Source of the DNA: Thermodesulfobacteriota bacterium
GTDB taxonomy: Bacteria > Desulfobacterota > GWC2-55-46
Assembly: GCA_046757705.1 (NCBI GenBank)
Contig: JBHHYT010000001.1
Span: forward strand, 237 to 64,236
DNA length: 64,000 nt
Reading direction: 5' to 3'
The position numbers were made by a program, and so were the translations under genes. Every line of letters starts with the position of its first letter. The stretch's first letter is position 1. The notes beneath the pieces are model-generated. The model was not told where the DNA came from. It did no database searches and saw only the letters and a list, made by a program, of their open reading frames with translations. Below are positions 8,996-61,853 of this stretch, in pieces.

Positions 8996-9004
8996 AGTAG
9001 ACGG

Positions 9005-31912: not shown

Positions 31913-31933
31913 TGTCCCTGATACCCTGTCCCC

Positions 31934-37928: not shown

Positions 37929-37970
37929 AGTCCCTGCGGTCGATTGAGGTGACAAAAGTTGTCAAAGTCC

Positions 37971-45317: not shown

Positions 45318-46262
45318 TCAGTAATTGAATGCCGCGGCGTCGAGGCCGTCCTTTATCCCCTGATAAAAAAGGGCCTTTTCGTTGTCCCCCAGCTCCCTGC
45401 AGACGCTGATGAGCCTGTCGAGCGCCTCCATGGTATTGCTGCGGGAGCCGCTGTTGGAGCTTACGACATAATAGCGCTCGAAGAGGAAGAGGGCCTTGAT
45501 GCGGCGGCCCGTCTTCAGGTTCAGCTCCGCCAGCTTCCTGAGGTCATGCGCTATCTTATCCGGCACCCCGGCGCTGGCGTCGAGCCTGTACGCCTTCTCG
45601 TAGTAATCGAACGCCTCTTCGGCATCGCCACCGGCAACGCTTGTATCGCCGAGCGCCCTGTAGGAGTTGGCCTGCTCGAGGGTGTCCCCGGCGTCGGTGT
45701 TTATCCTGAGCGCCGTGCCTAAGACCTCCCTGGCCTGCGCGTGCCTCCCGCAGTCGATATAGATGTAGCCGAGCAGGTTGAGCCTTGCTCCGGATTTATA
45801 ACCCAATCTGCTGTCGATTTGCAACGATTCTTCCATGTAGTCGAGCGCGGGGCCGGTCCGGCCCGAGAGATACTCGACCTTTGCGAAGGTCGCGTACGCC
45901 TCGGAGAGGTTCGCCTCATCCTTTGTCACCTCTCCGAGCCTCACCGCCGAGTTGAGAAAATCCGCAGCCGCCACGTACCTCCCGAGCGCCGTGTAGACCC
46001 TGCCTATGTTCACGAGGTCACGCATCTCGCCGGAACGGTTGTCGATGGAACGGTCTATACGGAGCGCCTCCCTGAACTTGTCCAGCGCCCTCTCGCGCGC
46101 GCCCGAGGCGAAGGCCTCGGCCCCGTCCCTGCTCGCCCCCTCGGACATGGAGAGCATAAACGGCCTGTCGGCGCGGATATGCGCGCACCCGGCGAAGAGC
46201 CCGGCGCCCGCAAGAGCCACGGCAAAGACAATACCAGCATACCTGCCCAAAAACCTACTCAT
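45318..46262 (-). CDS. TPR-repeat lipoprotein
   Basis: Lipobox LFAGC. TPR-like repeats (NIGRVYTALGRYVAAADFLNSAVRL, NLLGYIYIDCGRHAQAREVLGTALRI, YRALGDT...AEEAFDYYEKAYRL). Confidence 0.5.
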   Translation of the reverse strand: MSRFLGRYAGIVFAVALAGAGLFAGCAHIRADRPFMLSMSEGASRDGAEAFASGARERALDKFREALRIDRSIDNRSGEMRDLVNIGRVYTALGRYVAAADFLNSAVRLGEVTKDEANLSEAYATFAKVEYLSGRTGPALDYMEESLQIDSRLGYKSGARLNLLGYIYIDCGRHAQAREVLGTALRINTDAGDTLEQANSYRALGDTSVAGGDAEEAFDYYEKAYRLDASAGVPDKIAHDLRKLAELNLKTGRRIKALFLFERYYVVSSNSGSRSNTMEALDRLISVCRELGDNEKALFYQGIKDGLDAAAFNY

Positions 46263-47205
46263 CCACCCTCCTTTTAAACAGGGAACCGTCAAGGGGCACC
46301 AGCGCCGGGGCCGTCCGCCCGGGCAACATCAGCCTTATGGGCCAGCTCCGCCTCAACCCTTTCATGACATGCCTGCCATCCGACGCAGCCTGCCCGGCGT
46401 CGATGAGCAGCCGCCTTATCCTCTGCTTCTCGGCGGACATCATACCAGTAATCCCACCCAGGTCGTCAACTATCTTTTCCACCTTCACGGAGATCCTCTC
46501 GGCCCTCCCGGAGATGGAGCCGAGCCGGGCCGCCGCAGGGCCCAGGTCGTCGGCTACCGCGTCGAGCTTGCGCACGAACGCCCTCGACTCCCTGACCGTG
46601 GCGGAGAACTCCCTCATCGTGTCGGCCATCGCCTCCCTCGACCGGTTCAATTCTACGGTAAGCCCCCTCATGTTTTCAAGTATAACCTTTATATCGCCTT
46701 CCGGGTCGTTTGCATAGTCTATAATCTCCTTTATTTCCTTGAGCACCGGTTTGGCCTCCCTTATGAGCGTCTCTATGCCGCCCGTCCTCTCGAACGGGAG
46801 CACCTCCCCGTCTGCGAGCATCCTGCCCTCCGGGTCCCCGCCCGTTATCTCGACGAAGGCGTCCCCTATGAAGCCCTCCTTTACGAGGCGCGCCCTGGAG
46901 CCCTCGCGTATCCACCTCTCATACCTCTTGTTCACCTCCGCAAAGACCTCTACGCGGGCGTCGCCTGTAAGCTCTATACTCCTGACCCGGCCTATCTTGA
47001 ACCCCGAGAGCTTCACCGGCATCCCCTTCACGATGCCCGCGCCGCTCTCCGAGACGAAGTGCAGGCGGTACTTCTTGGTGAACAGGTCGCGCTCCCTGCC
47101 GATGAGCACCATGACGAGCAGGACGCCGATAACGGCGAAGAGCACGAGCACGCCCGTTTTTACCTCGAGGTTCCTGAACCTCGGGTCCTTCTCCCTTATG
47201 CCCAT
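46255..47205 (-). CDS. mlaD: MCE-domain protein (MlaD-like)
   Basis: N-terminal TM (VLVLFAVIGVLLVMVLIG) then MCE domain (KYRLHFVSESGAGIVKGMPVKLSGFKIGRV). Long coiled C-terminus. Confidence 0.7.
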   Translation of the reverse strand: MGIREKDPRFRNLEVKTGVLVLFAVIGVLLVMVLIGRERDLFTKKYRLHFVSESGAGIVKGMPVKLSGFKIGRVRSIELTGDARVEVFAEVNKRYERWIREGSRARLVKEGFIGDAFVEITGGDPEGRMLADGEVLPFERTGGIETLIREAKPVLKEIKEIIDYANDPEGDIKVILENMRGLTVELNRSREAMADTMREFSATVRESRAFVRKLDAVADDLGPAAARLGSISGRAERISVKVEKIVDDLGGITGMMSAEKQRIRRLLIDAGQAASDGRHVMKGLRRSWPIRLMLPGRTAPALVPLDGSLFKRRVDE

Positions 47206-47894
47206 CAGCGTACACCTCCCTTTTCAACGAACACGCCGCCCTCTATGCGCACCACCCGGCAGGCCTTGAAGACCGGGGCGTCCGCCGCGCTGGTGGAGGT
47301 AAAGAGCAGCCCACGGGACGGGCCGCAGGCGTGGAAACCGAGTATCAGCGAGGCTAGGACCTCCTTCTCGAAGGCCGTAAGTCCGGCGCCTATGCTCTCG
47401 CAGACGAGCACCTCCGGGTCCATGGAAAGGGCCCGCGCCACCGCGACCCTCTTCCTGTCGTGGAACCCCAGCAGGTCCGGCAGCCCCCAGAGGTCACCTT
47501 TAAAGCCCGTTGCGCCGAGCAGTTCACTTGCGAGCTCCAAGCACTCCTCAGGAGGCGTGTTCGTGTGGTAGAGCATCGGCAGGGCCACGTTCTCGATGAC
47601 CTTCAGGTTGCTCACCAGCACGGTGTCCTGAAAGACGAAGCCCATCCTCTTCTTGAGCCCGTTGAACGCCGACGGGGAAATCCCGGCTACCCCCTCTCCG
47701 AACAGGCGCACGGCGCCGCCCTCTGGCGCGAGCAGCCCGGAGATGAGCTTCAGGAGCACGCCCTTGCCCGAGCCCACCGGGGCGGTAACGAGCAGTATCT
47801 CCCCGGGGGCAAGCGAAAGGTGCGCCCGGTCGAATATGAGACGGCCGGCGTCGTTGGTATAGGTTACGTCCGTAAGCTCGACAAGTGGTTCCAT
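47205..47894 (-). CDS. mlaF: ABC-transporter ATPase-like protein (MlaF-like) with degenerate motifs
   Basis: 229 aa. Walker A APVGSGKG (S/T replaced by G). LSGGQ replaced by LGFHD before RKRVAVARAL. Walker B region VLVCESIGAGL. ATGA overlap with mlaD. Confidence 0.6.
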   Translation of the reverse strand: MEPLVELTDVTYTNDAGRLIFDRAHLSLAPGEILLVTAPVGSGKGVLLKLISGLLAPEGGAVRLFGEGVAGISPSAFNGLKKRMGFVFQDTVLVSNLKVIENVALPMLYHTNTPPEECLELASELLGATGFKGDLWGLPDLLGFHDRKRVAVARALSMDPEVLVCESIGAGLTAFEKEVLASLILGFHACGPSRGLLFTSTSAADAPVFKACRVVRIEGGVFVEKGGVR

Positions 47895-48015
47895 TCCATC
47901 CCCGGGGCCTGCGCCCTCGGCCTGTGCCCTGCGGCAGTGCCGTCTGTCACACCCCTCTCCTTCAAGTCATGGTGAGGGGTGCCGAGACAGAAAAACCACC
48001 CGGCCCGCGCGGCGC

Positions 48016-48798
48016 TTACATGAAAAACAGTATGGTGATGGCGGCGTCTGTCACGAAGACGAGGCCGAGGCTGCCGATGACCGCCTTCGTGACCTCCTGT
48101 GGTATCTGGGTAATCGACCTTTGCACCATCAGTCCGTGGTAAGAGCATACGGTGCCTGTTATAAGCCCGAAGAGGATGCTCTTCAATATCGAGACGCCCA
48201 CCTCGACAAAGCCCATGGCCCCGAGTATGCTCGACATGTAGACCGAAAAGGCTACCTTCTTCCCGAAGCCCGCCAGCAGGTACCCTCCCCCGATGGATAT
48301 GACCTCGAAGTAGACGGTGAGCGCGAAGACGCTCACGGCCGTGCCTATGACCCGGGGCATCACGAGGTAGTGCATGGGGTCTATGCCCATGACCTCGAGG
48401 GCCGCGATCTCCCGGGATATCTTCATGGTCCCGAGCTCCGCGGCTATGGCGGTGCCGCTGCGCGCTATGACTATGACCGAGGCGATGACAGGGCCGAGCT
48501 CGCGAACCACGACCCAGACGAGCATCTCGCCTATGAGCCCCTCGCCCCCGAGGCGCGGCAGTATGCTCAGCGCCTGTGTGACGACTATCAGGCCGAGGAT
48601 GAGCGCTATCCAGGAGACGATGGGGATGGCCTCGTAGGCGGTAAAGTATATCTGCTTCAAAAAAACGCTGAAGGTCGCCCGCCGCCGACCCACGAGCCTG
48701 AGAGCGGAACCGAGCGAGAAGGCGAGCAGCCTCCACTGGGCGTGTAGCACCCCCGCGCGCAATGACAGCTTTTCGCCTAAAGACCGGAATATCCCCAT
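48016..48798 (-). CDS. mlaE: ABC permease MlaE-like
   Basis: About 260 aa from ATG 48798 (MGIFRSLGEK). Conserved MlaE segments EAIPIVSWIALILGLIVVTQ, IVIARSGTAIAAELGTMKISREI.AL.VMGIDP. Confidence 0.75.
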   Translation of the reverse strand: MGIFRSLGEKLSLRAGVLHAQWRLLAFSLGSALRLVGRRRATFSVFLKQIYFTAYEAIPIVSWIALILGLIVVTQALSILPRLGGEGLIGEMLVWVVVRELGPVIASVIVIARSGTAIAAELGTMKISREIAALEVMGIDPMHYLVMPRVIGTAVSVFALTVYFEVISIGGGYLLAGFGKKVAFSVYMSSILGAMGFVEVGVSILKSILFGLITGTVCSYHGLMVQRSITQIPQEVTKAVIGSLGLVFVTDAAITILFFM

Positions 48799-49128
48799 AA
48801 TAACAAGCCGTCTACTGAAAAAGCAAAAGGGGACCCGTATAGGAAGTCCCCTGGTGCGTGTGTCCGAGAAGCGGTTTTTTGGATGATGTAATCGGAAAGC
48901 TGGCGGGAGCCCGCCAAGGGCCCCCTCGGTATTCTTTACAACGGGCCTCCCCGGAGCAGGCTGCGGGGTATCCCCTGAAACCTGCCCTCCCCATCGGGGG
49001 GGAGGGCCGTGAAAGAAAGGCATCCGGCTGGCGCCGGTGGATCAGACGATCGAAAACGGCCTGAAAGCACGGCGCTCCGGGCCGCATCCGTCAACGGCCG
49101 CCCCTTGCCCATTGCCCGGCGTGGAGGC

Positions 49129-49884
49129 TCAGAAGTCCGCCCTGACGTTAAGGAACGGCCCCTTGACCGTCAGGTCCCCCTTGTCAAGATCCTTCTCAAC
49201 GTGTATCTTGAAGAGCCTGTAACCGCCGGATACGACCACGAAGGGCGCGGGCTTGAAGTTGAACGCCGCCTCTCCGTCGACGAGATAGGCGTTGCCGCCA
49301 AGCGTTATTCCCGTCACCTCGCCCCCGACAGAGAAGAGGAACGGAAGCGAGACCTGGGCGGAGACGCCCACCGTGGGTATCGGGACGTTGAAGTTCTCGT
49401 TCTCGTCGAGCCCGAGTGACGTCGCCTTGAGGCGCGCGTTGCCGTCGAAGTACTTGAGCTCGAATATGAAGCCGAGGTGGTTATCAAGCATATCTATTAT
49501 ATCATATTCGTAGCCGAGGCGGTGGTAGTTCACATTCAGCTCCGACTCGACGGGGGTGGACGCCGTGTAGGTCTTGCCGCCGAAGATGACCTGCTGCGCA
49601 AGGGTGCTGGTGGCGTCCCACTTGAGAGGCACGAACGCGTACCTGATCTTGTGGCTTCCGAGCTCGAGGGTTATCCTGCCCTCGACGAAGCCCTTCGTCT
49701 CGTCGACGCCGAGGTCGTTGACGAAGTCGACGTTTGTCCCGGCGATGGAGCCGCTCGATGCCGTAATATCGCTGCTGAGGTTGGTAAACCAGTACCGGGC
49801 ATCGACGTCCACTACGGCCGACGCCTTTGAGCTGAACGAGACGGCGGCCAGAAATACGGCAAAAGCCAGCAGGATCTTCTTCAA
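49129..49884 (-). CDS. Outer-membrane beta-barrel protein (secreted, C-terminal Phe)
   Basis: 251 aa. Signal peptide MKKILLAFAVFLAAVSFSSKASA. Alternating amphipathic beta-strands. Terminal ...NVRADF. Confidence 0.4.
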   Translation of the reverse strand: MKKILLAFAVFLAAVSFSSKASAVVDVDARYWFTNLSSDITASSGSIAGTNVDFVNDLGVDETKGFVEGRITLELGSHKIRYAFVPLKWDATSTLAQQVIFGGKTYTASTPVESELNVNYHRLGYEYDIIDMLDNHLGFIFELKYFDGNARLKATSLGLDENENFNVPIPTVGVSAQVSLPFLFSVGGEVTGITLGGNAYLVDGEAAFNFKPAPFVVVSGGYRLFKIHVEKDLDKGDLTVKGPFLNVRADF

Positions 49885-49938
49885 AGCATACCTCCTTGAG
49901 TATAAGTCCGTTTTGCAGCTACCGCGAAGGGCTGTGGG

Positions 49939-50784
49939 CTACCGGAGCACGAAGACGACCCTCGCCCTTTCGAGAAAATTGTTAGACCGGTTGGACGTCA
50001 ATACGACCTCGGCATCCCCTGGCGCGATCCGCACGTCCGTTGACCTCAGCACCCCGCCGGCCCTTACCACCAGCGGGTTGGTGGAGCCGCGCTCCGCGAG
50101 AAGCGCCCGCGCCTTGCCGATGTCGTTCGTGTACCCGGCCGCCCCCCTCTCGACGAGTACGTCACCTGCCACGGAGGACGGGTCGTAGACGACCTCCCCG
50201 CCCCCGGTGAGCACCCGGTTTATGAGCGCTGGCTTGAAGGGGTGGCCCCTGACGTCTATGATAAGCCCGTCGTACGTCCCTGTGCTCGCAACGCCGGGGC
50301 CGGGCACGAACGGAGGCATGCCGCCCGGGTACATGGGCGTCACCTGCGGCAGGAGCGTGCCTATGAGGCCGCCCGGGCCCGTCATGGGCACGGAGAGATA
50401 GACTATTGCCATGCCGGTCGACGGGCCGTAGTCCTCCTTGACGGTCCGGGCCCCCTTTATGACCCCCTGCACCATGGTCCTCACGACGTCGGACTTGCTG
50501 GCGGCGTTCACTATCGTGGTCTCCCCGTCTACCGTCACGCCGCCGACCATCGATGCGGCCTCCCTCAAGGCGACCACCCTGGCGGCGCGAAGCGCCATCA
50601 ACCTCTTCTGCGCCGCGGAGTACGCCCCCGACGGGGCGGCGCCCTCGCCCCTTACCACGATGGAGCCGGAGACGAACGCCTGCGAAGGCCCGGAGGAAGG
50701 CTCAGGGTTATTATCACCCAAACCGGCGGCTGCGGCTGTGACAAACAGTACAAAAAAGACGGGAATGAGCAAAATTTTTCTCAT
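49939..50784 (-). CDS. Secreted LPP20/FlgP-like domain protein
   Basis: About 281 aa from ATG 50784 (signal MRKILLIPVFFVLFVTAAAAG). LPP20-like segment VVRGEGAAP...AAQKRLMALRAARVVALREAASMVGG...GVIKGARTV...AIVYLSVP. Pro/Gly-rich linker. Confidence 0.4.
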   Translation of the reverse strand: MRKILLIPVFFVLFVTAAAAGLGDNNPEPSSGPSQAFVSGSIVVRGEGAAPSGAYSAAQKRLMALRAARVVALREAASMVGGVTVDGETTIVNAASKSDVVRTMVQGVIKGARTVKEDYGPSTGMAIVYLSVPMTGPGGLIGTLLPQVTPMYPGGMPPFVPGPGVASTGTYDGLIIDVRGHPFKPALINRVLTGGGEVVYDPSSVAGDVLVERGAAGYTNDIGKARALLAERGSTNPLVVRAGGVLRSTDVRIAPGDAEVVLTSNRSNNFLERARVVFVLR

Positions 50785-50917
50785 CCTACCTCCCTGGCCA
50801 ACGGCTCTCGCGCAGAAAAGGCCGCCTGAGCCGGCCGTGGAAATGAAACCCTGCGGCAGTATGCCGAAAAAAAAACCGTCCATGGACCGCGCAAGCGGGT
50901 CGTCTTTCACAGGCCCG

Positions 50918-52132
50918 CTAATATATGTTGAGCCTCTGCTTGAGCACCCTTACGGCGAGTATCGCCTCGGCGCCGTCGACCTCGTCGTCCGGCCTGAACT
51001 CCCCGGAGAGCTCGGTCTCCATCAGGTTGCGGGTGGTCACGTTCATAATCGCGTTGTACCACGCGCTATCGGGCCGGACGTCCGGGAACGGCGAGCGCCT
51101 GTGGCCGAAGTATGCGGAGGAGATAGTCTCGTCCCCGGTGAGCTTTATGAGCACGTCCTCGAGCACCAGGGCGAAGTCCTTCCGAAGGACCGGCCTGTCC
51201 GGGCCGAAGAGGTACTCCTTCGATGACGGGTCCAGCACCGGCTCGAGGCCGCGCACCCCCCACTTCATAAGCAGGAGTATCTCCTGCTTGAAGGGGCTCG
51301 CCGCCACGTCCACGGGCGTGGGCCCCGGCTTCATCCTCTCTATCTCGGAGCTTACCGGTATCCTTCCGGCGAAGAGCCTGTCTATCTTCAGCTCGTCGAC
51401 GAGAAGCGCCGCCATGTCCCCGCGCGAGACCCTGTCCTTGACGGCTATCTCCGTCCCTATGTCCCCGAGGGTGATGCCGGCGAGCGCCCTTACTATCTTG
51501 TCGGTCTTCTTCCACGCCCTGTCGGCCTTTTCGTTCCATTTGCCTTCCCTGCGCAGGCCGAGCACGTCGCCGAACCTGTCCCGGGCCTTCTGGAACTCTC
51601 CGGCCTCGAGGTACGCGACACCCATGAAGTACGGGGCGGCCTCCCTGCCGTCGTAGAATACGAGCGCGTTCTCGTCGACCTTGAGCTTCATGGCCTTGCG
51701 GTAGCCGCCCTCGGCCGAGCGGAGCCACTTCCTCGGCTTGAGGACGGTATCGACACGCATGGACGCGAGGTAGTACGCGAACTCGTCTTCCTTGGTCTCG
51801 GCCCTCTTGAACGCCCTCTTGAGGTCGTAGAAGGACTTGTCCGCCGCCTCCTGGCGCATCTCACCGGACGGAAGCGCGGCGGCGGCGTACGCCTCGTACA
51901 GAGCGCGCCCGGCGTATCCTGGCCCGAAGCCCCTGTCGCACCGGAGCGAGCGGTCGAACTTCGCGGAGGCGTCCGCGAGCCTGCCCTGCTCTATCATCTC
52001 CATGCCGACGGAGTAATGGTGGCGCGGGTTGTCCTCGGGGGAGGTACAGACCATCTCCGGCCTGGAGCACCCGGCAGCCACGAAAAGCAGGGCCGCCAAC
52101 AGGGGCAGCAACAGCCTTGAAGGATTTCTCAT
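50918..52132 (-). CDS. Lipoprotein with two C-terminal SLH (S-layer homology) domains
   Basis: About 404 aa from ATG 52132 (lipobox FVAAGCS). SLH motifs DVAASPFKQEILLLMKWGVRG...FGPDRPVLRKDFALVL and FPDVRPDSAWYNAIMNV...FRPDDEVDGAEAILAV match FxDVxxxxWxxxxI...G...F.P...iTRaEaa. Confidence 0.6.
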   Translation of the reverse strand: MRNPSRLLLPLLAALLFVAAGCSRPEMVCTSPEDNPRHHYSVGMEMIEQGRLADASAKFDRSLRCDRGFGPGYAGRALYEAYAAAALPSGEMRQEAADKSFYDLKRAFKRAETKEDEFAYYLASMRVDTVLKPRKWLRSAEGGYRKAMKLKVDENALVFYDGREAAPYFMGVAYLEAGEFQKARDRFGDVLGLRREGKWNEKADRAWKKTDKIVRALAGITLGDIGTEIAVKDRVSRGDMAALLVDELKIDRLFAGRIPVSSEIERMKPGPTPVDVAASPFKQEILLLMKWGVRGLEPVLDPSSKEYLFGPDRPVLRKDFALVLEDVLIKLTGDETISSAYFGHRRSPFPDVRPDSAWYNAIMNVTTRNLMETELSGEFRPDDEVDGAEAILAVRVLKQRLNIY

Positions 52133-52262
52133 CGGATGCACCTCCTCGTATTCGGTCAGGGAACCTCTGAACAATTCATCACATCTCCAATGGCTTGACG
52201 CCATCGAAGATGGCAGCACGTCCATGTGCCGCGCAAGGTCTGAACAGATCAGGCATTCCCTG

Positions 52263-53252
52263 TCAGTCCAGCACCTTTACCACGTCGCCGGCGCGGAAGC
52301 CCGCGCCGGACTTTACCGCGCCCTCCGAGATGTTCTCGCCCTGATGGGTGGTCAGGGTTATCTCGCCTATCTTCTTCTCCCTCTTGCCGAGCACCCTGCC
52401 GGTATCCGGGTCTATGAGGTCTCTGCCGGGCCTGTAGACGCCGAGCGTGGTGCCCGGCTCGAGCCTGCTCCTGGTCCCTGCCCTTATGATTATGCTGGGC
52501 CCTTCCACGAGCACCACGCGGCTTTTGAAGGGTATGGCGTTGAGCTTCTCTATCATATTCGACATGGCCTTTGAGAGGGCGTCGCGAAGCGCGCCGTCCC
52601 TCAGGCCGGGGTCGGCGGTCGCCCTCGAACCCAGGCCGAGTATGCCGCCGGTCTTCTTCCTGTACTCGCCCAGCCCGGACTCGGACAAGAGGGTCTTTCC
52701 CGTGGAGACGTCCACGAGGGCGTAGTCCACCTGCACCCGCGCTATCCGGGTCTTGCTCTGGGTGAGTATGGTGTTGATCGACTCCTCGACCTCGGCGTAA
52801 GAGGTTATGGAGCCGGATATCCTGAAGTCCACCGACTCGAAGCCGGCGGCGGCGTCCTTCCTGCCCTTCCTGAGGGCCCCGGTCTGCTGAAGCTCGATAA
52901 GCCGCTCCTGCTCCTTCATCTCGTCTTTGGTCAGCACCACCGGCTCGAGCCCCGCCTGCTTTACGATGGTCCTCAGTATGTCGGTGGCCGCCTCCCCGAC
53001 GCCGATGGTCCCGCTCGGGGTCCTGTTGTCGAACTGGAGTATGGCGATGTTGTAGTCAGGCCCGCGGTACATGGAGCCGAGCTGCTCGAGCTCCCCGGTC
53101 TGCTCGGTGAGGCTTACGTCCTCCTTTACCGCCCCGGACATCGTCGGCCCGCAGCCCGTAAAGAGGAAGGCCGCCCCGATAAGCACGGCGAAAAGGACGC
53201 TCAACGTCCCTGCTTTAAACCCGTTTATCATCTCTGCCCCTCCTTTTTTCAA
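52263..53252 (-). CDS. CsgG-family lipoprotein (curli-type secretion channel-like)
   Basis: 329 aa. Lipobox LFTGCG. YNIAILQFDNRTPSG...GVGEAATDILRTIVKQAGLEPV...KEQERLIELQQTG matches the CsgG family N-domain pattern. Confidence 0.65.
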   Translation of the reverse strand: MKKGGAEMINGFKAGTLSVLFAVLIGAAFLFTGCGPTMSGAVKEDVSLTEQTGELEQLGSMYRGPDYNIAILQFDNRTPSGTIGVGEAATDILRTIVKQAGLEPVVLTKDEMKEQERLIELQQTGALRKGRKDAAAGFESVDFRISGSITSYAEVEESINTILTQSKTRIARVQVDYALVDVSTGKTLLSESGLGEYRKKTGGILGLGSRATADPGLRDGALRDALSKAMSNMIEKLNAIPFKSRVVLVEGPSIIIRAGTRSRLEPGTTLGVYRPGRDLIDPDTGRVLGKREKKIGEITLTTHQGENISEGAVKSGAGFRAGDVVKVLD

Positions 53253-53314
53253 GTGTTCTCAAATCATGCTGGTCGCAAAGCCGGGGGCCTGTCCGGGGCC
53301 CGCCTGACGTCACC

Positions 53315-54169
53315 TCAGGGGCCGGCCGCCCCGCCCCTGGCCCTCCCGGGGCCCGCCGGGAAGCCGGAGAGGACCTTTTTCAGCAAGACGTCCGTCTCCG
53401 CCTTCAGGTGCACGCCGAGGGCGGTGGTGATGATCTTCTCCGAGAGGGCGATGATGGCGGCGTCCCCGGCCTTGCGCGTCCCTATGACGCTTACAAGGCG
53501 CCAGTCGGAGAGCCCCTTTATGTCCTCTATCCCCTTTATGGAGCTGAACTCGTCGAGCCCGTCGCCCTCCAGCTCCTGCAGTATGGTTATGCCAGCGCCC
53601 GCCTTGCCCCCGGCTATCGCCGCCTTTACGCCGAGGCCGTCCGACCATACGACGACGCCCGTTCTCGTGTCCACGAGCTTGAAGCCCGCCCTGACCTTCT
53701 TGACGTTGTACAGGCCGGTGGTTATGTCGTCGAAGTTCAATACGTAGCCGTATATGACGCCGTCGACGCCGAGCACCTCTCCCACCTTCCCGGGGGTGGT
53801 CATCTCGAGCTGCGAGCCGAGCGTTATGCCCATCCTGTTTACGAGGACGGAGTCGGTCTGCTCAAGGGGCATCACCGAGTAGTGGCGTCCCTGGATGCGG
53901 CGGAAGAACTCCTCCCTTATCATGCGCGGGCCCTTCACGTCGTTCGTGGCGTTGTAGAACGGCAGTATGGCCACCGTGTAGACGGGGTTGGACGGGTCGG
54001 GCGCCACGGGGCGCACTCTCGGGCCCGCCGCGCACGCGGTGAGAGCAAAGGCGGTAAAGAGGAGCAATGCCGCGAACCGCGCTTTTTTTGATGACACAGC
54101 CCTTCTTCGAGCCACACTACCCGCGCGGGTACCGGGGTATGAGAGATTTCCGGACATCCACTGCTCCAA
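53315..54169 (-). CDS. Lipoprotein, CsgG-partner-like (DUF799/GNA1162-like; uncertain)
   Basis: 284 aa. Lipobox ALTACA. YTVAILPFYNATNDVKGPRMIREEF segment resembles DUF799-type lipoproteins that co-occur with CsgG homologues (from memory). Confidence 0.4.
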   Translation of the reverse strand: MEQWMSGNLSYPGTRAGSVARRRAVSSKKARFAALLLFTAFALTACAAGPRVRPVAPDPSNPVYTVAILPFYNATNDVKGPRMIREEFFRRIQGRHYSVMPLEQTDSVLVNRMGITLGSQLEMTTPGKVGEVLGVDGVIYGYVLNFDDITTGLYNVKKVRAGFKLVDTRTGVVVWSDGLGVKAAIAGGKAGAGITILQELEGDGLDEFSSIKGIEDIKGLSDWRLVSVIGTRKAGDAAIIALSEKIITTALGVHLKAETDVLLKKVLSGFPAGPGRARGGAAGP

Positions 54170-54234
54170 AACGGCCTTCCAGATGCGCCTTGCCCATTCT
54201 TTCGAGAAGAATGATGAGGGATTATAAGCCGGAC

Positions 54235-55485
54235 CTACCTGTTGAGGTCCACGCCCTCGACTATCACGTCAACGGAGTCCTTCGTGGCGCCCGTTACCCT
54301 GAAGTACGGCCCGAGCCTCGATACCCCGTCGGCTATCTTCTGGGCGCTTACCGTGGCCTCGAGTTCGAGCACGGCCGTGTCGCCGGTGTAGGAGCGCAGG
54401 AATATCGCCTCTATGCCCCTTATCCTGCCCTTGAGCCTTTTCTTGAAGTCCTTCAGCTCCTTGTAGTTGTCGACGCCGGAAAGGCGCAGGGTTACGGTCC
54501 GGGGGCCCGCCCACCTCTTCGTTATCTGCTCCACGAGCCTGCCGCCGAGCTCCGCCGAGGCCTTTGATATGGCCTCTGAGCCGCCGGTTATCGAGGAGAT
54601 GTTCCTCGCGGCGCCGTGGCCGGTGCTCGTGCCGAGCACCACCCCGTCGTCGACCCTCACGGCCGTTGCCGTCACATCTGCCAGATAGGTGCCGACGGTG
54701 CTTCCCGGCGTGCGGGGGCCCTCTGTGGCCACGGCCTTGCCGTAGACGACGATATCCGCGTTGAGCCCCTTTCCGACGGAGCGTGCCCCGTCCCTGCCAA
54801 GGTCGGCGACCTTCACGGCGTCGGAGAGGTCGAAGGTGCCTGTGCTGCCGGAGATGTCCACGACGTTGAAGCCCTTATCCACGAAGAGCTCCTTCAACGA
54901 TGACTCGGCGGCGGACAGGTCGACCGACTCGCCCCTGTACTCGCTCCTTCCCCACCACCAGAAGACGTAGTACCTGTGGCCGATGTTCTTCTCGGCCATC
55001 ATGAACAGTACCCTCGGGTTCTCGGCCTTTCTCCTGAGGATGCCCAGCGCGCCCAGCTCGTCGCGCAGGCCTCCGACTGCTACCTCGGCGCGCACGCTTA
55101 CCCGGTAGACGCCTGAGGACTGCCCCTCGGCGGTAACGGAATAGCTCTTGATGTAGCCGTGGGTCTGCGTATAGACGTTGTCGCTCAATGCCTGATAGTT
55201 CTCTACCATGGTCTCGGAGGAGACCAGCGTACCCACGCCCTGCTCGACGGCCTTTCTGAGCGCGTCGGCTATGGCGGAGTCCCGTGCCGCGGCCTCACCC
55301 CCGCCGGCAACAACGGCCACCCCCGTGGATTCCACGACCTTTATCCCGGGAGCGGCCCGGGCACGGGCTGGCACGGCCATGAGGAGGCATGCAAACAGGA
55401 AGATGGCAACTGCCATGAAGCGGCAGCTCCCGGACGGACCGAGGGGTGCGGTTGTATTTTCCATGGATAAAGACCTCCTGATCAA
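54235..55485 (-). CDS. Secreted three-domain protein with N-terminal LPP20-like domain (FlgT/FlgP-like architecture)
   Basis: 416 aa (likely start at internal ATG 55416, MAVAIFLFACLLMAVPARA signal). IKVVESTGVAVVAGGGEAAARDSAIADALRKAVEQGVGTLVSSETMVENY...VYRVSVRAEV is LPP20-like. Confidence 0.4.
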   Translation of the reverse strand: MIRRSLSMENTTAPLGPSGSCRFMAVAIFLFACLLMAVPARARAAPGIKVVESTGVAVVAGGGEAAARDSAIADALRKAVEQGVGTLVSSETMVENYQALSDNVYTQTHGYIKSYSVTAEGQSSGVYRVSVRAEVAVGGLRDELGALGILRRKAENPRVLFMMAEKNIGHRYYVFWWWGRSEYRGESVDLSAAESSLKELFVDKGFNVVDISGSTGTFDLSDAVKVADLGRDGARSVGKGLNADIVVYGKAVATEGPRTPGSTVGTYLADVTATAVRVDDGVVLGTSTGHGAARNISSITGGSEAISKASAELGGRLVEQITKRWAGPRTVTLRLSGVDNYKELKDFKKRLKGRIRGIEAIFLRSYTGDTAVLELEATVSAQKIADGVSRLGPYFRVTGATKDSVDVIVEGVDLNR

Positions 55486-55746: not shown

Positions 55747-56229
55747 TCAGTTCTGCACCTGTGGGCTGGCAGCGGAGGCCGTAGTGCCCGTCTCGAACCT
55801 CAATATGCCCGACTGGTCGGCGTAGAACCAGCGGGCGGAGGTGGAGCCGTCTACCGGGGCTGCGGTCACCTGCCAGACGGGCTTGCCCCCGGAGGTGCCT
55901 GAGGAAAGGCTGAAGGTATACTCGTGCTCGATGCGCGTCGACGCACCTGTGGAGGGCGTTATCAGCCCCGTCGTTTCGAGCTCGTCGAAGTCGCCGGTGT
56001 ACGACGCCGTCGGGCTCCCCAGGTAATAGAGCTCCTCGGCCTTTACGAGCTTGGAGAGGTATGAGATCACAGCGGTCTCCCGCGCCTTCTGTATGAACTT
56101 GCTGTAGACGGGCAGGGCTATGACGGCGAGTATGGCGACTATGGCCATGGTGAACAGGAGCTCGAGGACGGTAAAACCGCCTGTACCGCCACCGCTTCCG
56201 GCCGGCCCGCCCGCCGCATGCGCGCTCAT
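55747..56229 (-). CDS. Type IV pilin-like / pseudopilin protein (prepilin N-methylation domain)
   Basis: G|FTVLELLFTMAIVAILAVIALPVY class III signal. Gly-rich leader. S/T-rich mature domain. Start set at ATG 56229; track ORF extends to 56283. Confidence 0.6.
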   Translation of the reverse strand: MSAHAAGGPAGSGGGTGGFTVLELLFTMAIVAILAVIALPVYSKFIQKARETAVISYLSKLVKAEELYYLGSPTASYTGDFDELETTGLITPSTGASTRIEHEYTFSLSSGTSGGKPVWQVTAAPVDGSTSARWFYADQSGILRFETGTTASAASPQVQN

Positions 56230-56269
56230 ACCGTTTGTCCGCACCATAGGCTTTTTCCCGAAGGCCCCT

Positions 56270-56836
56270 CTAACCATCGGCACAGCGGGCGTTAAGCTCG
56301 CTTATGAGGCCCTGCGTAAGGTGTTTAACGTCCTCGGGGTACTCGGCGCCCTCGGCCTCGAGCATCGCCGATATCATCTCGAGACGGGTCTTGACGTCGT
56401 TGCAGAAGGCGGCGTCGCGGTTCCGTCTCAGCTCAAGCTCCTGCGCAAGCGCGTTAAGAAGCCCCTCCATCTCCTTGAACTCGTCCCTCTTCCTTATGCG
56501 GATGCGGTGCGCGTAGTTCCCGGACGTAAGCTCCTCGATCATCCTCTCGAACCTGTACATCGGCCCCACGACACGGTGGGAGGAGAATATGGCGTGCACC
56601 GCGGCAAGCACCGCGACCAGGAAAAAGCCTATCCAGACCCTCTTGTGCAGGAAGAGCACCATCGAGGATATGCGCGCCTGCTCATCGATGCTCGCGGCGG
56701 AGTTGAGCGCGCTGTAGAGCGGATAGAAGATGATAAAACCGAGTATGGCAGAGTAGATGACAATGTAGATAAAGAAGGTCAAGGCGAGCTTGAGCTGGTA
56801 CTCGGGCTTTACGATAATCTTTTTACGGGCAGCCAT
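56270..56836 (-). CDS. Membrane protein with two TM helices and a HAMP domain (no output domain)
   Basis: Start set at ATG 56836 (MAARKK) with GGAGAA Shine-Dalgarno. TM1, TM2, then HAMP-like GPMYRFERMIEELTSGNYAHRIRIRKRDEFKEMEGLLNAL. Confidence 0.45.
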   Translation of the reverse strand: MAARKKIIVKPEYQLKLALTFFIYIVIYSAILGFIIFYPLYSALNSAASIDEQARISSMVLFLHKRVWIGFFLVAVLAAVHAIFSSHRVVGPMYRFERMIEELTSGNYAHRIRIRKRDEFKEMEGLLNALAQELELRRNRDAAFCNDVKTRLEMISAMLEAEGAEYPEDVKHLTQGLISELNARCADG

Positions 56837-57004
56837 CGTGTGCTTCTCCAAAATAAACTCTGAACAATTCGTCCCGGAACCATTCAGACCCTTCCCGAAT
56901 AAAGGAACCCTGTATCTGAATCACAACCCAACTCTCCCCCGTGGGAGAGGGCAAGGGGCAAGCGGTTGCCGAAAACACCCCCTGAGGAGCGCAATGGCGC
57001 GGCA

Positions 57005-58189
57005 TCAAGGGGTCTCGTTGAACTCCTCTTTTATCCGGTCGAGCTTGCCCGGGTCCGCAAAGAGGTCGATGGCGGTAAGGCCGAGGCACTTTACCCCCTC
57101 CATAAGCGCCCTGTGGCCGTCCGGGGTGACGGTGGCATCGGCGAAGCCGTGGGTATGTATGTTTATGCCCGGCCTCATCGGCACGTGCGGGTGTATGGCC
57201 GGCACCACGCGCGACACGTTGCCGATGTCGGAGGAGCCTACGTTCCTGTCCGCCGGCTGCACCGCCTCCTCGAGCCCGAGCATGTTCAGCGCCCCCCTGT
57301 ACACATCGCTGAACGAGTGGTTCAGCTTCATGGGGGCGTTCATCTCGCCCGCCTCCTCGGCCTCGAGCGAACAGCCGGTGGCCAGCGCCGCGCCCTCGGC
57401 GCATTTTATGACCTTCTGCTTTACGGCCTGCAGCTCCCCGAGCTCGTTGGACCTGACGTAGAAGCAGGCCGCAGCCCTGTCCGGGATGATGTTCGGGGCC
57501 CTGCCGCCGTCGGTTATTATGCCGTGTACCCTCACGCCCGTGGACAGCTGCTGCCTGAGGGCGTTTATGGAATTGAATGTCTGGATGACCGCGTCGAGGG
57601 CGTTTACGCCCTCTTCCGGGTACGCCGAGGCGTGGCTTGCGTGCCCGTGGAAGGTGAAGCTGATTTTCGCAAGCCCGATGAAGTTCTTTAAGACGGTCCT
57701 CCTCGATGAGGCGTGCACCATCATGGCCGCGTCCACCCCCTCGAAGAGCCCCTTTTTTATCATCTCCAGCTTGCCCTTGCCGAGCTCTTCGGCCGGTGTG
57801 CCGAGCACAAGGAGCGTACCCTGTCCGCCCGCAAGGGCGTCCTTCATGACGGCGGCGATGGCGGCGCCCGCGCCTATGGAGGCGGTACCCCCGATGTTGT
57901 GGCCGCAGCCGTGGCCTACGCCGGGCAGCGCGTCCATCTCCGCAAGGAGGGCGATTACAGGGGCGCCTGAGCCGATCACGGCCCTGAAGGCGGTCGGCAT
58001 CCCGGCCACCCCCTCCTCCACGGCAAAGCCCGCCTGCGCGAGGAAGGCGCGCATGGCCGCGCTCGTCCTGTGCTCCTCGAGGCCGAGTTCCGGGTTGCGG
58101 TAGAAGCTGTCGCTCATAGCGGTCAACCTCTCGTTGAGCCCGTCGGCGGCCTCTACGAGCCGTTCTTTCAGTACCGCTGTCTTATCCAT
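57005..58189 (-). CDS. M20D-family amidohydrolase (aminoacylase/hippurate hydrolase-like)
   Basis: About 394 aa from ATG 58189. RNPELGLEEHRT, ALLAEMDALPGVGHGCGHN, dimerisation domain. Typical M20D layout. Confidence 0.75.
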   Translation of the reverse strand: MDKTAVLKERLVEAADGLNERLTAMSDSFYRNPELGLEEHRTSAAMRAFLAQAGFAVEEGVAGMPTAFRAVIGSGAPVIALLAEMDALPGVGHGCGHNIGGTASIGAGAAIAAVMKDALAGGQGTLLVLGTPAEELGKGKLEMIKKGLFEGVDAAMMVHASSRRTVLKNFIGLAKISFTFHGHASHASAYPEEGVNALDAVIQTFNSINALRQQLSTGVRVHGIITDGGRAPNIIPDRAAACFYVRSNELGELQAVKQKVIKCAEGAALATGCSLEAEEAGEMNAPMKLNHSFSDVYRGALNMLGLEEAVQPADRNVGSSDIGNVSRVVPAIHPHVPMRPGINIHTHGFADATVTPDGHRALMEGVKCLGLTAIDLFADPGKLDRIKEEFNETP

Positions 58190-58275
58190 AAGGTCTTTAT
58201 CGGCCCTTTCGGCGACACCTTGAAGCCGGCGCCCGCAGCGCCGGATTACCAAGCGCTGCGGCCGCCCGGCGGGCA

Positions 58276-59994: not shown

Positions 59995-60045
59995 CTTTCA
60001 CTTCCTCCTTCTCGTTGATTAATTTTTTAAAAATCTCTGAGCCAA

Positions 60046-60849
60046 TCAGACCTTCCCTATGTACTTCCGCCATGGGAAGGGCGGAGAGCCCGTCACCATG
60101 AAAAACGGGTTCAGCAAGTCCTCCCGATTGTAGCGCAGCGCCTTGCCGTCGAGGTCGGTCACCCGCCCTCCCGCGGCCTCCACGACGCACTGGGCCGCGG
60201 CGGTGTCCCACTCCATGGTGGGCCCGAGCCTCGGGTATATGTGCGCCGTGCCGTCGGCAACGAGACAGAACTTGAGGGAGCTGCCCATGCACACCACCTC
60301 GTAGGCGCCGACCTCGCTTAAAAAGGCGTCGAGCGCCTCTCCCCTGTGCGAGCGGCTCGCGACCACCTTGAGCGGGCCTTCCCCCGAATAGCCGGATACG
60401 CTTATGCGGGAGGTCGCACCGTCGCTTACCCTGAACGCCCCCGATCCCTTCACGCCGTAGTACGTCACACCGAGCGCCGGGGCGTAGACCACGCCGAGCA
60501 CCGGCCAGGCGTCCTCGACGAGGGCGATGTTGACGGTGAACTCGCCGTTACGCTTTATGAACTCCTTGGTGCCGTCCAGGGGGTCGACTATCCAGAGCCT
60601 CTTCCACGCCTTGCGTACCTGGAAAGGCTCGGCCTTCGACTCCTCCGAGAGCACCGGCACATCGGGCGTAAGGGCGGCGAGCGCGCCTGTTATTATATCA
60701 TTGGCGGCCTTGTCGGCAAGCGTAAGCGGAGAGCCCTCCTCCTTGTAGGTGGTGCCGAAGTCCGCAGACCCGTAGACCTCGAGTATCGCATCTCCGGCCC
60801 TGTGCGCTACCGCTACGACCTCTTTTAAAAGCTCATCCATGCTCAACAA
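60046..60849 (-). CDS. cysQ: 3'(2'),5'-bisphosphate nucleotidase
   Basis: 267 aa. Inositol monophosphatase-family motifs WIVDPLDGTKEF and metal-binding EES...D. Confidence 0.8.
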   Translation of the reverse strand: MLSMDELLKEVVAVAHRAGDAILEVYGSADFGTTYKEEGSPLTLADKAANDIITGALAALTPDVPVLSEESKAEPFQVRKAWKRLWIVDPLDGTKEFIKRNGEFTVNIALVEDAWPVLGVVYAPALGVTYYGVKGSGAFRVSDGATSRISVSGYSGEGPLKVVASRSHRGEALDAFLSEVGAYEVVCMGSSLKFCLVADGTAHIYPRLGPTMEWDTAAAQCVVEAAGGRVTDLDGKALRYNREDLLNPFFMVTGSPPFPWRKYIGKV

Positions 60850-60919
60850 CCCTCAGGTACCCCCCCGTTCAACAGACGCGCCCGTATAAAGAGAGGCGGG
60901 GCCCGACGTCGGTCTAAAA

Positions 60920-61615: not shown

Positions 61616-61792
61616 AGGTACACCCTGCATTATATTCGTATCGTTTATAGACCGTTCCACCCTGCCCCGTACACCGCCCCCGGTACACTCCGCCCGGGGC
61701 ACCCGTCCCCGCAAATCGCCCCCGCAAATCGCCCCCGTAGCACCCGCCCCAAACCGCCCCCGGGGCCGCCTCCCGTCATCGATGCGCAGGAG

Positions 61793-61835
61793 GCCTTTAA
61801 AACCCCCTCTCCCCTTCGGGGAGAGGGGGGGGATG
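61793..61835 (-). terminator. Rho-independent terminator after usp (REP-like palindrome)
   Basis: CCCCCTCTCCCC-TTCG-GGGGAGAGGGGG (12-bp stem, UUCG loop) followed on the minus strand by UUUUAAAGG. 20-60 nt past the usp stop. Confidence 0.55.
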
Positions 61836-61853
61836 AGGGGTAGATGTCCCGCA

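Follow-up and report, generated by a model that had tools for sequence, protein, structure and literature searches.

The closest described counterparts of the gene cluster considered here are found in flagellar rings, that is, in the H-ring of Vibrio with its components FlgT, FlgO and FlgP, and in the basal disk of Campylobacter, which involves FlgP. Within the FlgP family, ring oligomerisation correlates with the presence of a β-hairpin insert (PMC12222027). Further points of comparison are PelC, PqiC and LptE, lipoproteins that serve as rings or plugs in machines for export and transport at the outer membrane and that, in each known case, act together with a barrel or with a tube spanning the envelope, as well as the CsgG curli channel and HfaB (PF03783, CsgG/HfaB family), GNA1162 from Neisseria meningitidis, and the SLH-domain tethers of Terrabacteria.

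Six genes that recall several of these systems (g1 to g6) reside in a 64,000-nt stretch of DNA (hereafter the window) from an uncultured, sulfate-reducer-like member of the Thermodesulfobacteriota. The ORF list bears out the gene order given in the preliminary description: six co-directional minus-strand ORFs fill positions 49129–55485, and for all six the starts were refined by ribosome binding sites and signal peptides read in the sequence. The cluster is real and far exceeds chance expectation, given that each gene has homologues (dozens per gene, 45–87% identity) and that at least 24 independent loci preserve the same order. Its composition is that of the envelope only, with three lipoboxes (g2, g3 and g4), two SPase-I signals (g1 and g5) and one barrel (g6), in agreement with the lipoprotein or secreted status previously assigned; domain searches and a lipobox survey across g1–g6 returned no enzymatic, inner-membrane or cytoplasmic domains. 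In the window genome, g3 and g4 are indeed 130 nt apart, as described, while homologues have about 7–40 nt at this site. Neither csaB nor flagellar genes were found within the window, and a scan of its approximately 54 ORFs likewise revealed no curlin (CsgA/B), as had been noted before.

One of the proteins with a flagellar-ring likeness is g5 (49939–50784, minus strand), a secreted protein of 281 aa with an SPase-I signal. An SHS2 domain of the FlgP/LPP20 type that keeps the β-hairpin insert (residues 41–121, window positions 50422–50664) is followed by a Pro/Gly-rich linker and, at the C-terminus, a domain resembling D2 of Tp0624. The window protein by itself reaches only E 0.24 against LPP20; its designation as a second LPP20-domain protein is borne out at the family level, where 23 of 35 members match Pfam LPP20 (best 6e-6). 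Moreover, the family profile aligns without gaps with FlgP structures from C. jejuni (9hmf_C, E 1.5e-15) and Vibrio (8z5n_2, E 4.6e-11), the FlgP matches from both genera ranging from E 1.5e-15 to 4e-9, and no gap separates the SHS2 helix from the following strand. Foldseek related g5, whose AF2 model has a pLDDT of 76.6, to the D1–D2 tandem of Tp0624 (5jir) with E 3.8e-10. A lipobox is present in none of 47 g5 homologues.

The second such protein, g1 (54235–55464, minus strand; 409 aa, SPase-I signal), is a secreted periplasmic protein with an FlgT_N/SHS2 domain (residues 43–128), a CsgG/LptE-like α/β middle domain that contains an FWWWG motif (residues about 140–320) and a small C-terminal domain. 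What had been called an LPP20-like three-domain secreted protein holds as FlgT_N/LPP20-type, with Pfam FlgT_N matched at E 6e-9 and in all 20 of 20 homologues; the family profile also detects the C. jejuni motor-scaffold lipoprotein 9hmf_C (E 7e-5). Matches of the middle domain to DUF3280, DUF6175, DUF2066, CsgG and LptE are weak, as is one of residues 50–351 to LipL46. Only 5 of 72 homologues carry a lipobox.

The third, g3 (52263–53231, minus strand), is a lipoprotein of 322 aa (lipobox FTGC) that joins an α/β domain of the CsgG/PelC/FlgT_M type (residues about 55–232) to a β domain like those of FlgT_C and TsaP (residues 236–320, window positions 52272–52526), TsaP being a secretin-surrounding protein whose PDB entry describes it as LysM domain-containing. 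In a Foldseek search with the g3 model, FlgT ranked first and aligned over both domains (E 1.8e-16, 292 columns). A Nitrospirota homologue scores jointly on Pfam CsgG, FlgT_M and FlgT_C, and a paralogue scores on FlgO.

Three further partners complete the cluster. The outer-membrane lipoprotein g2 (53315–54157, minus strand; lipobox LTAC) begins either at ATG 54157 with a GGAG ribosome binding site or at GTG 54115, and its assignment as DUF799-like is well founded: it exceeds the cut-off of PF05643 (GNA1162-like, DUF799; E 3e-9, 37.1 bits, cut-off 25.9), matches GNA1162 in the PDB (4hrv, E 1.7e-5) and has a lipobox in 68 of 88 homologues. The 404-aa lipoprotein g4 (50918–52132, minus strand; lipobox AAGC) combines a TPR-like helical N-terminal domain, with weak matches to BamD, PilW and PilF-like proteins, and a C-terminal SLH region. 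Of the two SLH domains previously proposed, the domain type stands (Pfam SLH, E 7.6e-11) and the count does not, since there is one solid repeat (window positions 50960–51091) preceded by two degenerate ones, R1 and R2, which remain sub-threshold in homologues (E 0.014–0.075) in correct register. The family is 55–75% identical, including its Nitrospirota members. An SLH domain is indeed unusual in this part of the bacterial tree, as a survey reports SLH and CsaB to be "practically absent in the Gracilicutes" (10.1101/2021.05.31.446380). Finally, g6 (49129–49884, minus strand; 251 aa) is a small outer-membrane β-barrel of about 10–12 strands, as previously recognised, and its alignment displays hydrophobic alternation and a C-terminal Phe; it matches NCBIfam TIGR04219 (E 2.5e-19; 69 bits, under the family cut-off of 105), and homologues match OMP_b-brl and YfaZ weakly.

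The six families are inherited together. At least 24 genomes of uncultured Thermodesulfobacteriota share the conserved set, which reappears in a different order in Nitrospinota, and in the Nitrospirota loci L086 and L087 all six families are present in rearranged form. A core of the g1 middle domain, g2 and g3 extends to Gammaproteobacteria, and in both Nitrospirota and Gammaproteobacteria this middle domain alone partners g2–g3. The combination of a CsgG-like protein, an LPP20 protein and a small lipoprotein is widespread, as had been stated, and functional studies of it were not found in the literature. In 19 loci, the core occurs without any wall-binding partner, and hence tethering cannot be its ancestral function.

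Tentatively, we favour the reading that g1–g6 encode a non-flagellar scaffold akin to the H-ring or basal disk that ties outer membrane and cell wall together, instead of a curli-type pore. The lipoproteins g2 (GNA1162/PelC-like), g3 (CsgG/FlgT_M and FlgT_C/TsaP-like) and g4 (TPR and SLH) would insert their lipid anchors into the inner leaflet of the outer membrane, with the soluble periplasmic proteins g1 (FlgT_N and CsgG/LptE-like) and g5 (FlgP-like, including the hairpin linked to ring formation) layered beneath them, and g6 would serve as integral membrane anchor. Binding to the wall would be the task of the g4 SLH region, by non-covalent attachment to peptidoglycan or another wall polymer. 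From such an arrangement, an oligomeric ring or disk coupling outer membrane and cell wall would therefore result, which possibly also encircles another envelope machine. Ring formation is proposed by analogy with the flagellar systems, to which g5 (FlgP), g1 (FlgT_N) and g3 (FlgT) point. A wall-binding theme is suggested by the TsaP-like domain of g3 and the likeness of g5 to the OmpA-fused Tp0624, and the co-occurrence of the six families in conserved and rearranged loci speaks for the scaffold, as does a composition made up of envelope proteins alone. The mean column identity of 67% in both g3 and g4 fits tight multi-protein packing. Against this scaffold speak the missing lipidation of g5, unlike FlgP, the single significant SLH repeat together with the absence of csaB from the window, the core loci that lack a wall-binding partner, and the chance that the proteins serve a flagellum or secretin that the organism encodes elsewhere.

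A rather unlikely alternative is that the cluster forms the outer-membrane end of a trans-envelope, Mla-like MCE lipid transporter. Behind g6 and on the same strand follow genes for MlaE (about 48016–48798; Pfam MlaE, 9.7e-60), the ATPase MlaF (47205–47894; Pfam ABC_tran, 1.9e-13), a long MlaD/MCE protein (46255–47205; Pfam MlaD, 4e-14) and, closing the conserved block on its downstream side, a TPR outer-membrane lipoprotein (45318..46262; lipobox FAGC; Pfam TPR_12, E 2.8e-27), all of them possibly associated with the cluster. MlaFE and the long MlaD would make up a pump in the inner membrane together with a tube through the periplasm; its docking collar at the outer membrane would consist of g2 and g3 with their PqiC/LptE/CsgG fold, the g6 barrel and the TPR lipoproteins, with g4 attaching the collar to the wall. 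The block follows g6 in 19–23 loci from at least 19 genomes, which keeps the link to lipid transport open. In addition, MlaEF adjoins the rearranged cluster L087, and the ORF coordinates of mlaF and mlaD, and of mlaD and the TPR lipoprotein, overlap, the start of the latter lying within the end of mlaD. In 29 loci the TPR lipoprotein occurs downstream of g6, also in eight g2-g3-g4-g6 loci among them that are devoid of Mla genes, as if MlaEFD sat within the module; the gene unit may extend beyond g6 to MlaEFD and this lipoprotein. MlaD comprises 316 aa, about 190 of which form a C-terminal extension past the MCE domain, and long MlaD proteins without MlaA and MlaC have been proposed to need further accessory proteins (PMC10665443). 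However, the Mla genes are missing from the core, the Nitrospinota variant, L086, L002 and the said eight loci, and a gap of 330 nt with a terminator-like hairpin (48852–48828) separates g6 from mlaE in the window. Unrelated flanking genes (M20 peptidase, sat and RR-HK) are equally syntenic in 25–35 loci of the same genomes, and the adjacency may be inherited gene order.

Less probable still is a secretion pore of the CsgG type (type VIII-like), in which a g3 oligomer would form an outer-membrane channel with g2 and g4 as accessory proteins, and the exported protein would possibly be g1, g5 or a surface-layer component. This was the original interpretation of g3 as a CsgG-like channel lipoprotein, of which membership in the CsgG superfamily and lipidation stand. 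The partial Pfam CsgG match lies slightly above threshold (23.4 bits, cut-off 20.8), the NCBI annotation reads "CsgG/HfaB family protein", and the long β-strands of the model (136–153, 158–174 and 180–196) sit where CsgG has its hairpins. Yet these hairpins are 6–9 residues shorter than TM1 and about 7 shorter than TM2 of CsgG, have one aromatic residue each compared to 3–4, and carry 5–6 charged residues apiece as well as invariant polar ones. The g3 profile did not find CsgG among PDB sequences, hhalign gave a probability of 1.7%, and CsgE and CsgF, just as curlin, are absent from the window. With FlgT as best structural match, an extra FlgT_C/TsaP-like domain that CsgG lacks, and short polar hairpins, pore formation by g3 is doubtful. 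Likewise, the hint of surface-layer export found no support; the preliminary description stands in gene order, secretion status and nearly all domain calls, and gives way on the channel, the pair of SLH domains and this export function.

It is quite improbable that the proteins are accessory rings of a machine encoded elsewhere, such as the LP-ring of a flagellum, the secretin of a type IV pilus or a different outer-membrane conduit, in the manner of FlgT/FlgP/FlgO and TsaP. The similarities to FlgT, FlgP and TsaP agree with this as well as with the favoured scaffold, the N-terminal domain of g4 bears a weak resemblance to PilF and PilW, TPR lipoproteins of the pilotin type, a pilin-like gene (55747–56283) directly precedes g1 on its upstream side in 13 close relatives, and pilB, pilT, pilC, pilS and pilR are found in the window at 30.5–38 kb. 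However, no flagellar or secretin gene adjoins the cluster in the window, nor at the annotated loci L002, L004, L086 and L087, and the pilin neighbour does not go beyond the closest relatives. Least probable is a Pel- or alginate-type exopolysaccharide export funnel, in which a PelC-like ring (g2, g3) and the TPR protein g4 would guide the polymer to g6: the mix of TPR protein, barrel and lipoprotein ring recalls PelBC and AlgK-AlgE, and Nitrospirota variants fuse a GNA1162-like domain to a NosD/β-helix and TPR protein, but every main-type locus lacks synthase, glycosyltransferase and polymer-modifying genes, and g6 with about 228 mature residues is small, known polysaccharide porins being much larger with 16–18 strands.

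Returning to the favoured scaffold, its components can be compared with the known systems in turn. As in CsgG and HfaB, g3 is a lipoprotein; it differs in its shorter, polar hairpins and the added C-terminal β domain, partners of the CsgE, CsgF, curlin or HfaA/HfaD type are missing, and a pore is doubtful. Similar to PelC, PqiC and LptE, the lipoproteins here have a barrel protein (g6) as well as an MCE system for neighbours; in contrast, membership at the sequence level was not detected, Pel, Pqi and Lpt partner genes are absent, and three different proteins of that fold (g1 middle domain, g2 and g3) occur together. By sequence, g2 is a member of the GNA1162 family (NMB1162, 4hrv, PF05643) and shares its lipidation, but has about 90 extra C-terminal residues, and some homologues reach 450–500 aa. 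Treponema pallidum Tp0624 shares the D1–D2 tandem with g5 and is fused to its own OmpA-like domain, whereas Leptospira LipL46, weakly matched by g1 over about 300 residues, is a lipoprotein. The Terrabacteria tethers (OmpM, SlpA, Thermotoga Omp-α/Omp-β) follow the same tethering logic of an SLH module tied to the outer membrane, here with a β-barrel gene nearby; however, the g4 SLH region is borne by a TPR lipoprotein, unfused to porin or coiled coil, has a single canonical repeat and occurs in Gracilicutes. With the Vibrio H-ring and the Campylobacter basal disk, finally, the cluster shares the lipid anchoring of proteins to the outer membrane and the union of FlgT_N/SHS2 (g1), FlgT_M plus FlgT_C-like (g3) and FlgP-type SHS2 domains with the ring-forming hairpin (g5). 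It departs from them in its non-flagellar gene context, in the distribution of the FlgT domains over two proteins, in the unlipidated g5 with its Tp0624-D2-like domain and, compared to the H-ring, in the additional GNA1162-like, SLH-TPR and β-barrel partners.

The envelope cluster, in a 64-kb window from a MAG assigned to Thermodesulfobacteriota, comprises six minus-strand open reading frames (ORFs) that point in one direction (g1 to g6; 49129–55485), and competing long ORFs of comparable support are absent. Their starts, which are preceded by ribosome binding sites, and their signal peptides were read from the sequence. The 5'-most gene, g1 (54235–55464), encodes a 409 aa FlgT_N protein with a signal peptidase I (SPase I) site (ARA↓AP). 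It is followed by three lipoprotein genes, i.e. g2 of the GNA1162/DUF799 type (53315–54157 or 54115, as the start is ambiguous and the length thus not fixed; lipobox LTAC), the CsgG-superfamily member g3 (52263–53231; 322 aa; FTGC) and the TPR-SLH protein g4 (50918–52132; 404 aa; AAGC). The last two genes specify products with SPase I signals, namely the FlgP/LPP20-type protein g5 (49939–50784; 281 aa) and the small outer-membrane beta-barrel g6 (49129–49884; 251 aa; C-terminal Phe). Existing NCBI names are 'CsgG/HfaB family protein' for g3, 'S-layer homology domain-containing protein' for g4 and 'hypothetical protein' for g5. The cellular locations are backed by a lipobox census over homologues, which was positive for 68 of 88 g2, 70 of 84 g3 and 42 of 58 g4 proteins, for 5 of 72 g1 proteins and for none of the 47 g5 and 41 g6 proteins. 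Nothing cytoplasmic or enzymatic is encoded among the six genes. An Rfam search of 44–57 kb gave no match, and a promoter/terminator scan returned 14 terminator-like sites, which is not above the 10.5 ± 3.6 of shuffled sequence; hence, operon boundaries are to be read as putative.

A locus scan with one genome per species, in which neighbourhoods were censused by BLASTP, returned 80 loci from uncultured Deltaproteobacteria/Thermodesulfobacteriota, Nitrospirota, Nitrospinota and a few Gammaproteobacteria. Together with a literature search on DUF799, CsgG-like, LPP20, GNA1162, DUF4810 and LipL46 proteins that found no functional study of the module, this bears out the preliminary description of a real, widespread and uncharacterised module. 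The order g1-g2-g3-g4-g5-g6 occurs in 24 loci, and short contigs carry truncated versions of it. A core of three genes, in which g1 is represented by its middle domain only (residues ~146–320), accounts for 19 loci from Nitrospirota, Ca. Manganitrophus and, among Gammaproteobacteria, Ca. Tenderia and others, while eight loci show g2-g3-g4-g6 and Nitrospinota show g1-g2-g3-g5-g4, in part followed by a g1 paralogue. Two Nitrospirota genomes, found from g4, harbor all six families in another gene order: a g6-like and a g1-like gene, a protein scoring with CsgG, FlgT_M and FlgT_C, g4 (56–57% identical) and g5 (39–40%), followed by a further CsgG/LpoB-like gene, one for a transglutaminase, and one in which a GNA1162-like domain is joined to NosD/beta-helix and TPR regions. 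That the six families are kept together through such rearrangement is the best evidence that they work jointly. In these two clusters (L086, 5013–15757; L087, 2962–14457), the transglutaminase-core protein and the extra paralogue, which scores with CsgG/LpoB or FlgO, are enclosed by the module, and the fusion protein has ~760 aa.

Upstream of the module on the same strand lies an assimilatory sulfate cluster (57005–63757) that includes an M20 peptidase, a Sat-CysC fusion (58276–59994), a CysQ-like phosphatase (60046–60849), a PAPS reductase (60920–61714) and an SLC13 sulfate/citrate-type transporter (62324–63757); it is syntenic with g1–g6 in ~25 genomes. Immediately upstream of g1, a prepilin-type pilin-like gene (N_methyl, ComP_DUS) and a small HAMP-domain membrane protein (55747–56851, minus strand) form a pair whose conservation is restricted to 13–14 of the closest relatives. 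Farther away, the window contains an Rnf region (1993–11099) with RnfB-like (1993–2850), RnfA/E (3583–4215), RnfG (4233–4985), RnfD (5019–6026) and RnfC (6126–7466) genes, an HtrA-type protease (7931–8995) and a multihaem cytochrome c7-type protein (9939–11099).

The lipoprotein g3 shares the alpha/beta core fold of CsgG and scores above the Pfam CsgG threshold (PF03783; 23.4 bits, cut-off 20.8) with a partial match (profile positions 64–156 of 210). Its AF2 structure prediction, based on 36 homologues (pLDDT 72), was compared with the PDB by Foldseek, and the top match was Vibrio FlgT (3w1e; E 1.8e-16, 292 columns) alongside the LPHT-ring entry 8z5n. CsgG ranked after FlgT (~3e-10 over ~215 columns), followed by HpaA, GNA1162, PelC, LptE and a PqiC-like protein. 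This ranking implies that the alpha/beta core of g3 is one common to a whole superfamily of outer-membrane lipoproteins. Unlike CsgG, g3 has an extra C-terminal beta domain, which matches FlgT_C and, by sequence profile, resembles the two FlgT_C-like domains of the secretin-associated TsaP (E 5.5e-4). FlgT_M and FlgT_C are recognized in g3 at the fold level only, by Foldseek of the predicted model; the window protein scores below both Pfam models, and its L086 homologue matches them weakly. When PDB sequences were searched with g3 itself and with the profile of its family, neither CsgG nor FlgT was retrieved, only TsaP and weakly.

The FlgT likeness extends to g1, which matches FlgT_N (PF16548) at E 6e-9 over profile positions 2–85 of 87, as do 20 of 20 homologues. 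In FlgT, a single polypeptide comprises the N, M and C domains, whereas these are here divided between g1 and g3. The middle domain of g1 gives scattered weak matches to DUF3280, DUF6175, DUF2066, CsgG and LptE, which belong to the same superfamily as the g3 core, and g1 also weakly matches LipL46; polyubiquitin matches to its C-terminal domain were discarded as summed repeat artefacts. At the start of the middle domain, a Trp-rich stretch (YYVFWWWGRSE, consensus FWWWG; residues ~155–172, window about 54950–55000) is kept even in the short core-only partners of Nitrospirota and Gammaproteobacteria. For g5, the window protein alone reaches only E 0.24 against Pfam LPP20 (PF02169), but 23 of 35 homologues match this model. 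The g5 family profile aligns without gaps to the C. jejuni motor-scaffold lipoprotein 9hmf_C (E 1.5e-15) and to Vibrio FlgP (E 4.6e-11 and 4e-9), so that judged by sequence profiles its assignment to FlgP/LPP20 is firm at the family level. Residues 41–121 align gapless to FlgP 70–149 and cover the insert linking the SHS2 helix to the strand after it; this insert correlates with ring oligomerisation and builds the continuous sheet of FlgP rings (PMC12222027). The AF2 monomer of g5 (pLDDT 76.6; residues 82–108 of low confidence) matches the D1-D2 tandem of Treponema Tp0624 in Foldseek (E 3.8e-10), which is fused to an OmpA-like domain in that protein (PMC5104382). In contrast to FlgP with its N-terminal lipid anchor, g5 carries an SPase I type signal and no lipobox.

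Among the remaining parts, g2 is a lipoprotein that scores 37.1 bits (E 3e-9; cut-off 25.9) with GNA1162-like/DUF799 (PF05643) and E 1.7e-5 with the solved GNA1162 (4hrv). Many g2 homologues have 450–500 aa instead of ~260 aa owing to an extra C-terminal region (L012, L017, L019, L020, L022, L027, L037, L040 and others), which in L004 faintly matches DUF4412. In g4, the preliminary description had seen two SLH domains. The SLH call holds, with one significant repeat over the full profile (PF00395, positions 1–44; E 7.6e-11, 42.3 bits, cut-off 20.8) and a precomputed SLH match in 120 of 120 homologues among the matches listed. The count does not, as the solid repeat is preceded by two degenerate ones that lie in the right register and reach E 0.014–0.075 in some homologues (repeat-to-repeat hhalign is weak, E 1e-3 to 0.02). 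With the g4 family profile, weak TPR matches but no SLH protein of known structure were retrieved, and no csaB match (PS_pyruv_trans) was found among the ~54 window ORFs. That the SLH association is unusual, as initially remarked, agrees with a survey of 1093 genomes in which SLH and CsaB were 'practically absent' from Gracilicutes (10.1101/2021.05.31.446380). Between the window type and the Nitrospirota variants (L086, 7965–9209; L087, 7947–9218), g4 is 56–57% identical, while other parts share 24–40%; this sequence conservation may reflect exceptional constraint on g4 or else its lateral transfer. Finally, g6 spans the full length of TIGR04219 with E 2.5e-19, although its 69.4 bits fall below the cut-off of 105, and by this curated threshold it counts as a relative and not as a member.

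In V. cholerae, 26 copies of FlgT and 58 each of the lipoproteins FlgP and FlgO form concentric rings that are lipid-anchored to the outer membrane 'without forming a membrane pore' (10.64898/2025.12.02.691832). The FlgT/FlgP/FlgO-like parts list, with nothing cytoplasmic or enzymatic in it, leads us to read g1–g6 as a ring scaffold. Tentatively, and with somewhat less than even confidence, the module is proposed to be a non-flagellar scaffold resembling the H-ring or basal disk that would be suspended from the outer membrane and fixed to the cell wall through the SLH domain of g4. While the analysis shows locations, folds and co-inheritance, we infer the rings, the contacts between the parts and the binding to the wall.

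A serious, albeit unlikely, rival is that g1–g6 are coupled to an Mla lipid-transport machine. Directly downstream of g6 on the same strand lies a block of MlaE, MlaF, a long MlaD and a TPR lipoprotein (45318–48798). The Mla set is recognized by Pfam (MlaE, MlaF and MlaD ORFs, 46255–49023; E 9.7e-60, 1.9e-13 and 4e-14), MlaD has 316 aa with ~190 residues beyond the MCE domain, and the ORF coordinates give overlaps of 1 nt for mlaF/mlaD and of ~8 nt for mlaD/TPR lipoprotein. The weight of this rival stems from the recurrence of the block 3' of g6 on the same strand in 19–23 loci, from PqiC-type rings of the same fold that dock MCE proteins (PMC13631591), and from long MlaD proteins without MlaA and MlaC, for which a need for unknown partners has been proposed (PMC10665443). 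In addition, 29 loci, among them the ones that lack Mla genes, have the TPR lipoprotein gene 3' of g6, and MlaEF flanks one Nitrospirota variant (L087). However, flanking genes with no relation to the module show the same degree of synteny, Mla genes are missing from several variants, and g6 and mlaE are here separated by 330 nt containing a terminator-like hairpin (48828–48852, minus strand; nine pairs and a T-run) ~20 nt ahead of the putative start of mlaE. The hairpin, at which Rfam shows nothing, could be a terminator for g1–g6 or a 5' leader element. It seems rather improbable that g1–g6, the TPR lipoprotein and MlaFE with the long MlaD constitute a single trans-envelope MCE lipid conduit whose outer-membrane end is an SLH-pinned, FlgT/FlgP/PelC-like multi-ring collar. 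To our knowledge, no MCE system with a multi-ring collar pinned by an SLH lipoprotein has been described. Such an envelope module could have served as a source for the recruitment of flagellar H-rings and basal disks.

The reading of g3 as a CsgG-type pore, which the preliminary description favored in speaking of a channel, is quite unlikely. The g3 model does have hairpin regions corresponding to the transmembrane hairpins of CsgG; an hhalign comparison with E. coli CsgG (probability 1.7%) was used for register only. Relative to CsgG, the hairpins are 6–9 and ~7 residues shorter, with one aromatic residue each versus 3–4, and they carry 5–6 charges, invariant polar residues and weaker amphipathicity. 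Compared by hydropathy with TM1 and TM2 of CsgG, these features lean against a membrane-spanning barrel, if not decisively. No csgE, csgF, curlin or HfaA/HfaD partner was found among the ~54 window ORFs (Pfam scan) or in L002, L004, L086 and L087, and a plain curli operon was rejected since csgA, B, E and F are all absent. Of the earlier interpretation, the module, its spread and the unusual SLH association stand, whereas the channel is doubtful, and the nearest solved relatives are ring scaffolds of flagellar motors. S-layer export was likewise rejected for want of a candidate substrate.

There is only a small chance that the proteins surround, as accessory rings, a flagellum or secretin whose genes lie elsewhere. 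Such a role is favored by the pilin-like gene upstream of g1 in 13 close relatives and by pilBTC/pilSR in the window, where a minus-strand type IV pilus set (25611–37955) encodes a PilB-like ATPase with MshEN domain (36228–37955), PilT-like (34966–36090) and PilC (33746–34966) proteins, a PilS-like kinase (31934–33694) and a PilR-like sigma-54 activator (30515–31912), preceded by two large TPR proteins (25611–27428 and 28219–30534). The window yielded no secretin gene, and no flagellar genes (flgOP, motXY, LP-ring) were found among its ~54 scanned ORFs or in the annotated loci L002, L004, L086 and L087. A pilus-secretin substitute, suggested by the TsaP-like domain, a PilF-like TPR and the pilin gene next to g1, was not retained as an explanation, since only the closest relatives show this pilin adjacency. 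A Pel-like polysaccharide funnel is highly improbable.

Taken together, if the non-flagellar scaffold exists, then FlgT, FlgP and FlgO, which are known only as flagellar motor accessories, have free-standing relatives that would make up an envelope module conserved across three or four phyla at least, whose members are for the most part uncultured. This module would be a candidate for the non-flagellar ancestor from which the H-ring and basal disk arose, and a route to testing how ring-forming lipoproteins were recruited. It would also represent wall attachment by SLH within the Gracilicutes, a group from which SLH and CsaB are reported as all but missing, with a bearing on the evolution of outer-membrane tethering systems. 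The recurring Mla neighbourhood without MlaA and MlaC, in turn, touches the question of what the long MlaD proteins contact at the outer membrane. Compared with the V. cholerae ring set, g1–g6 comprise the same set of parts and, in addition, a GNA1162/PelC-like lipoprotein, a TPR-SLH lipoprotein and a small barrel. Each component comes from a known family, while their combination and non-flagellar context are new.
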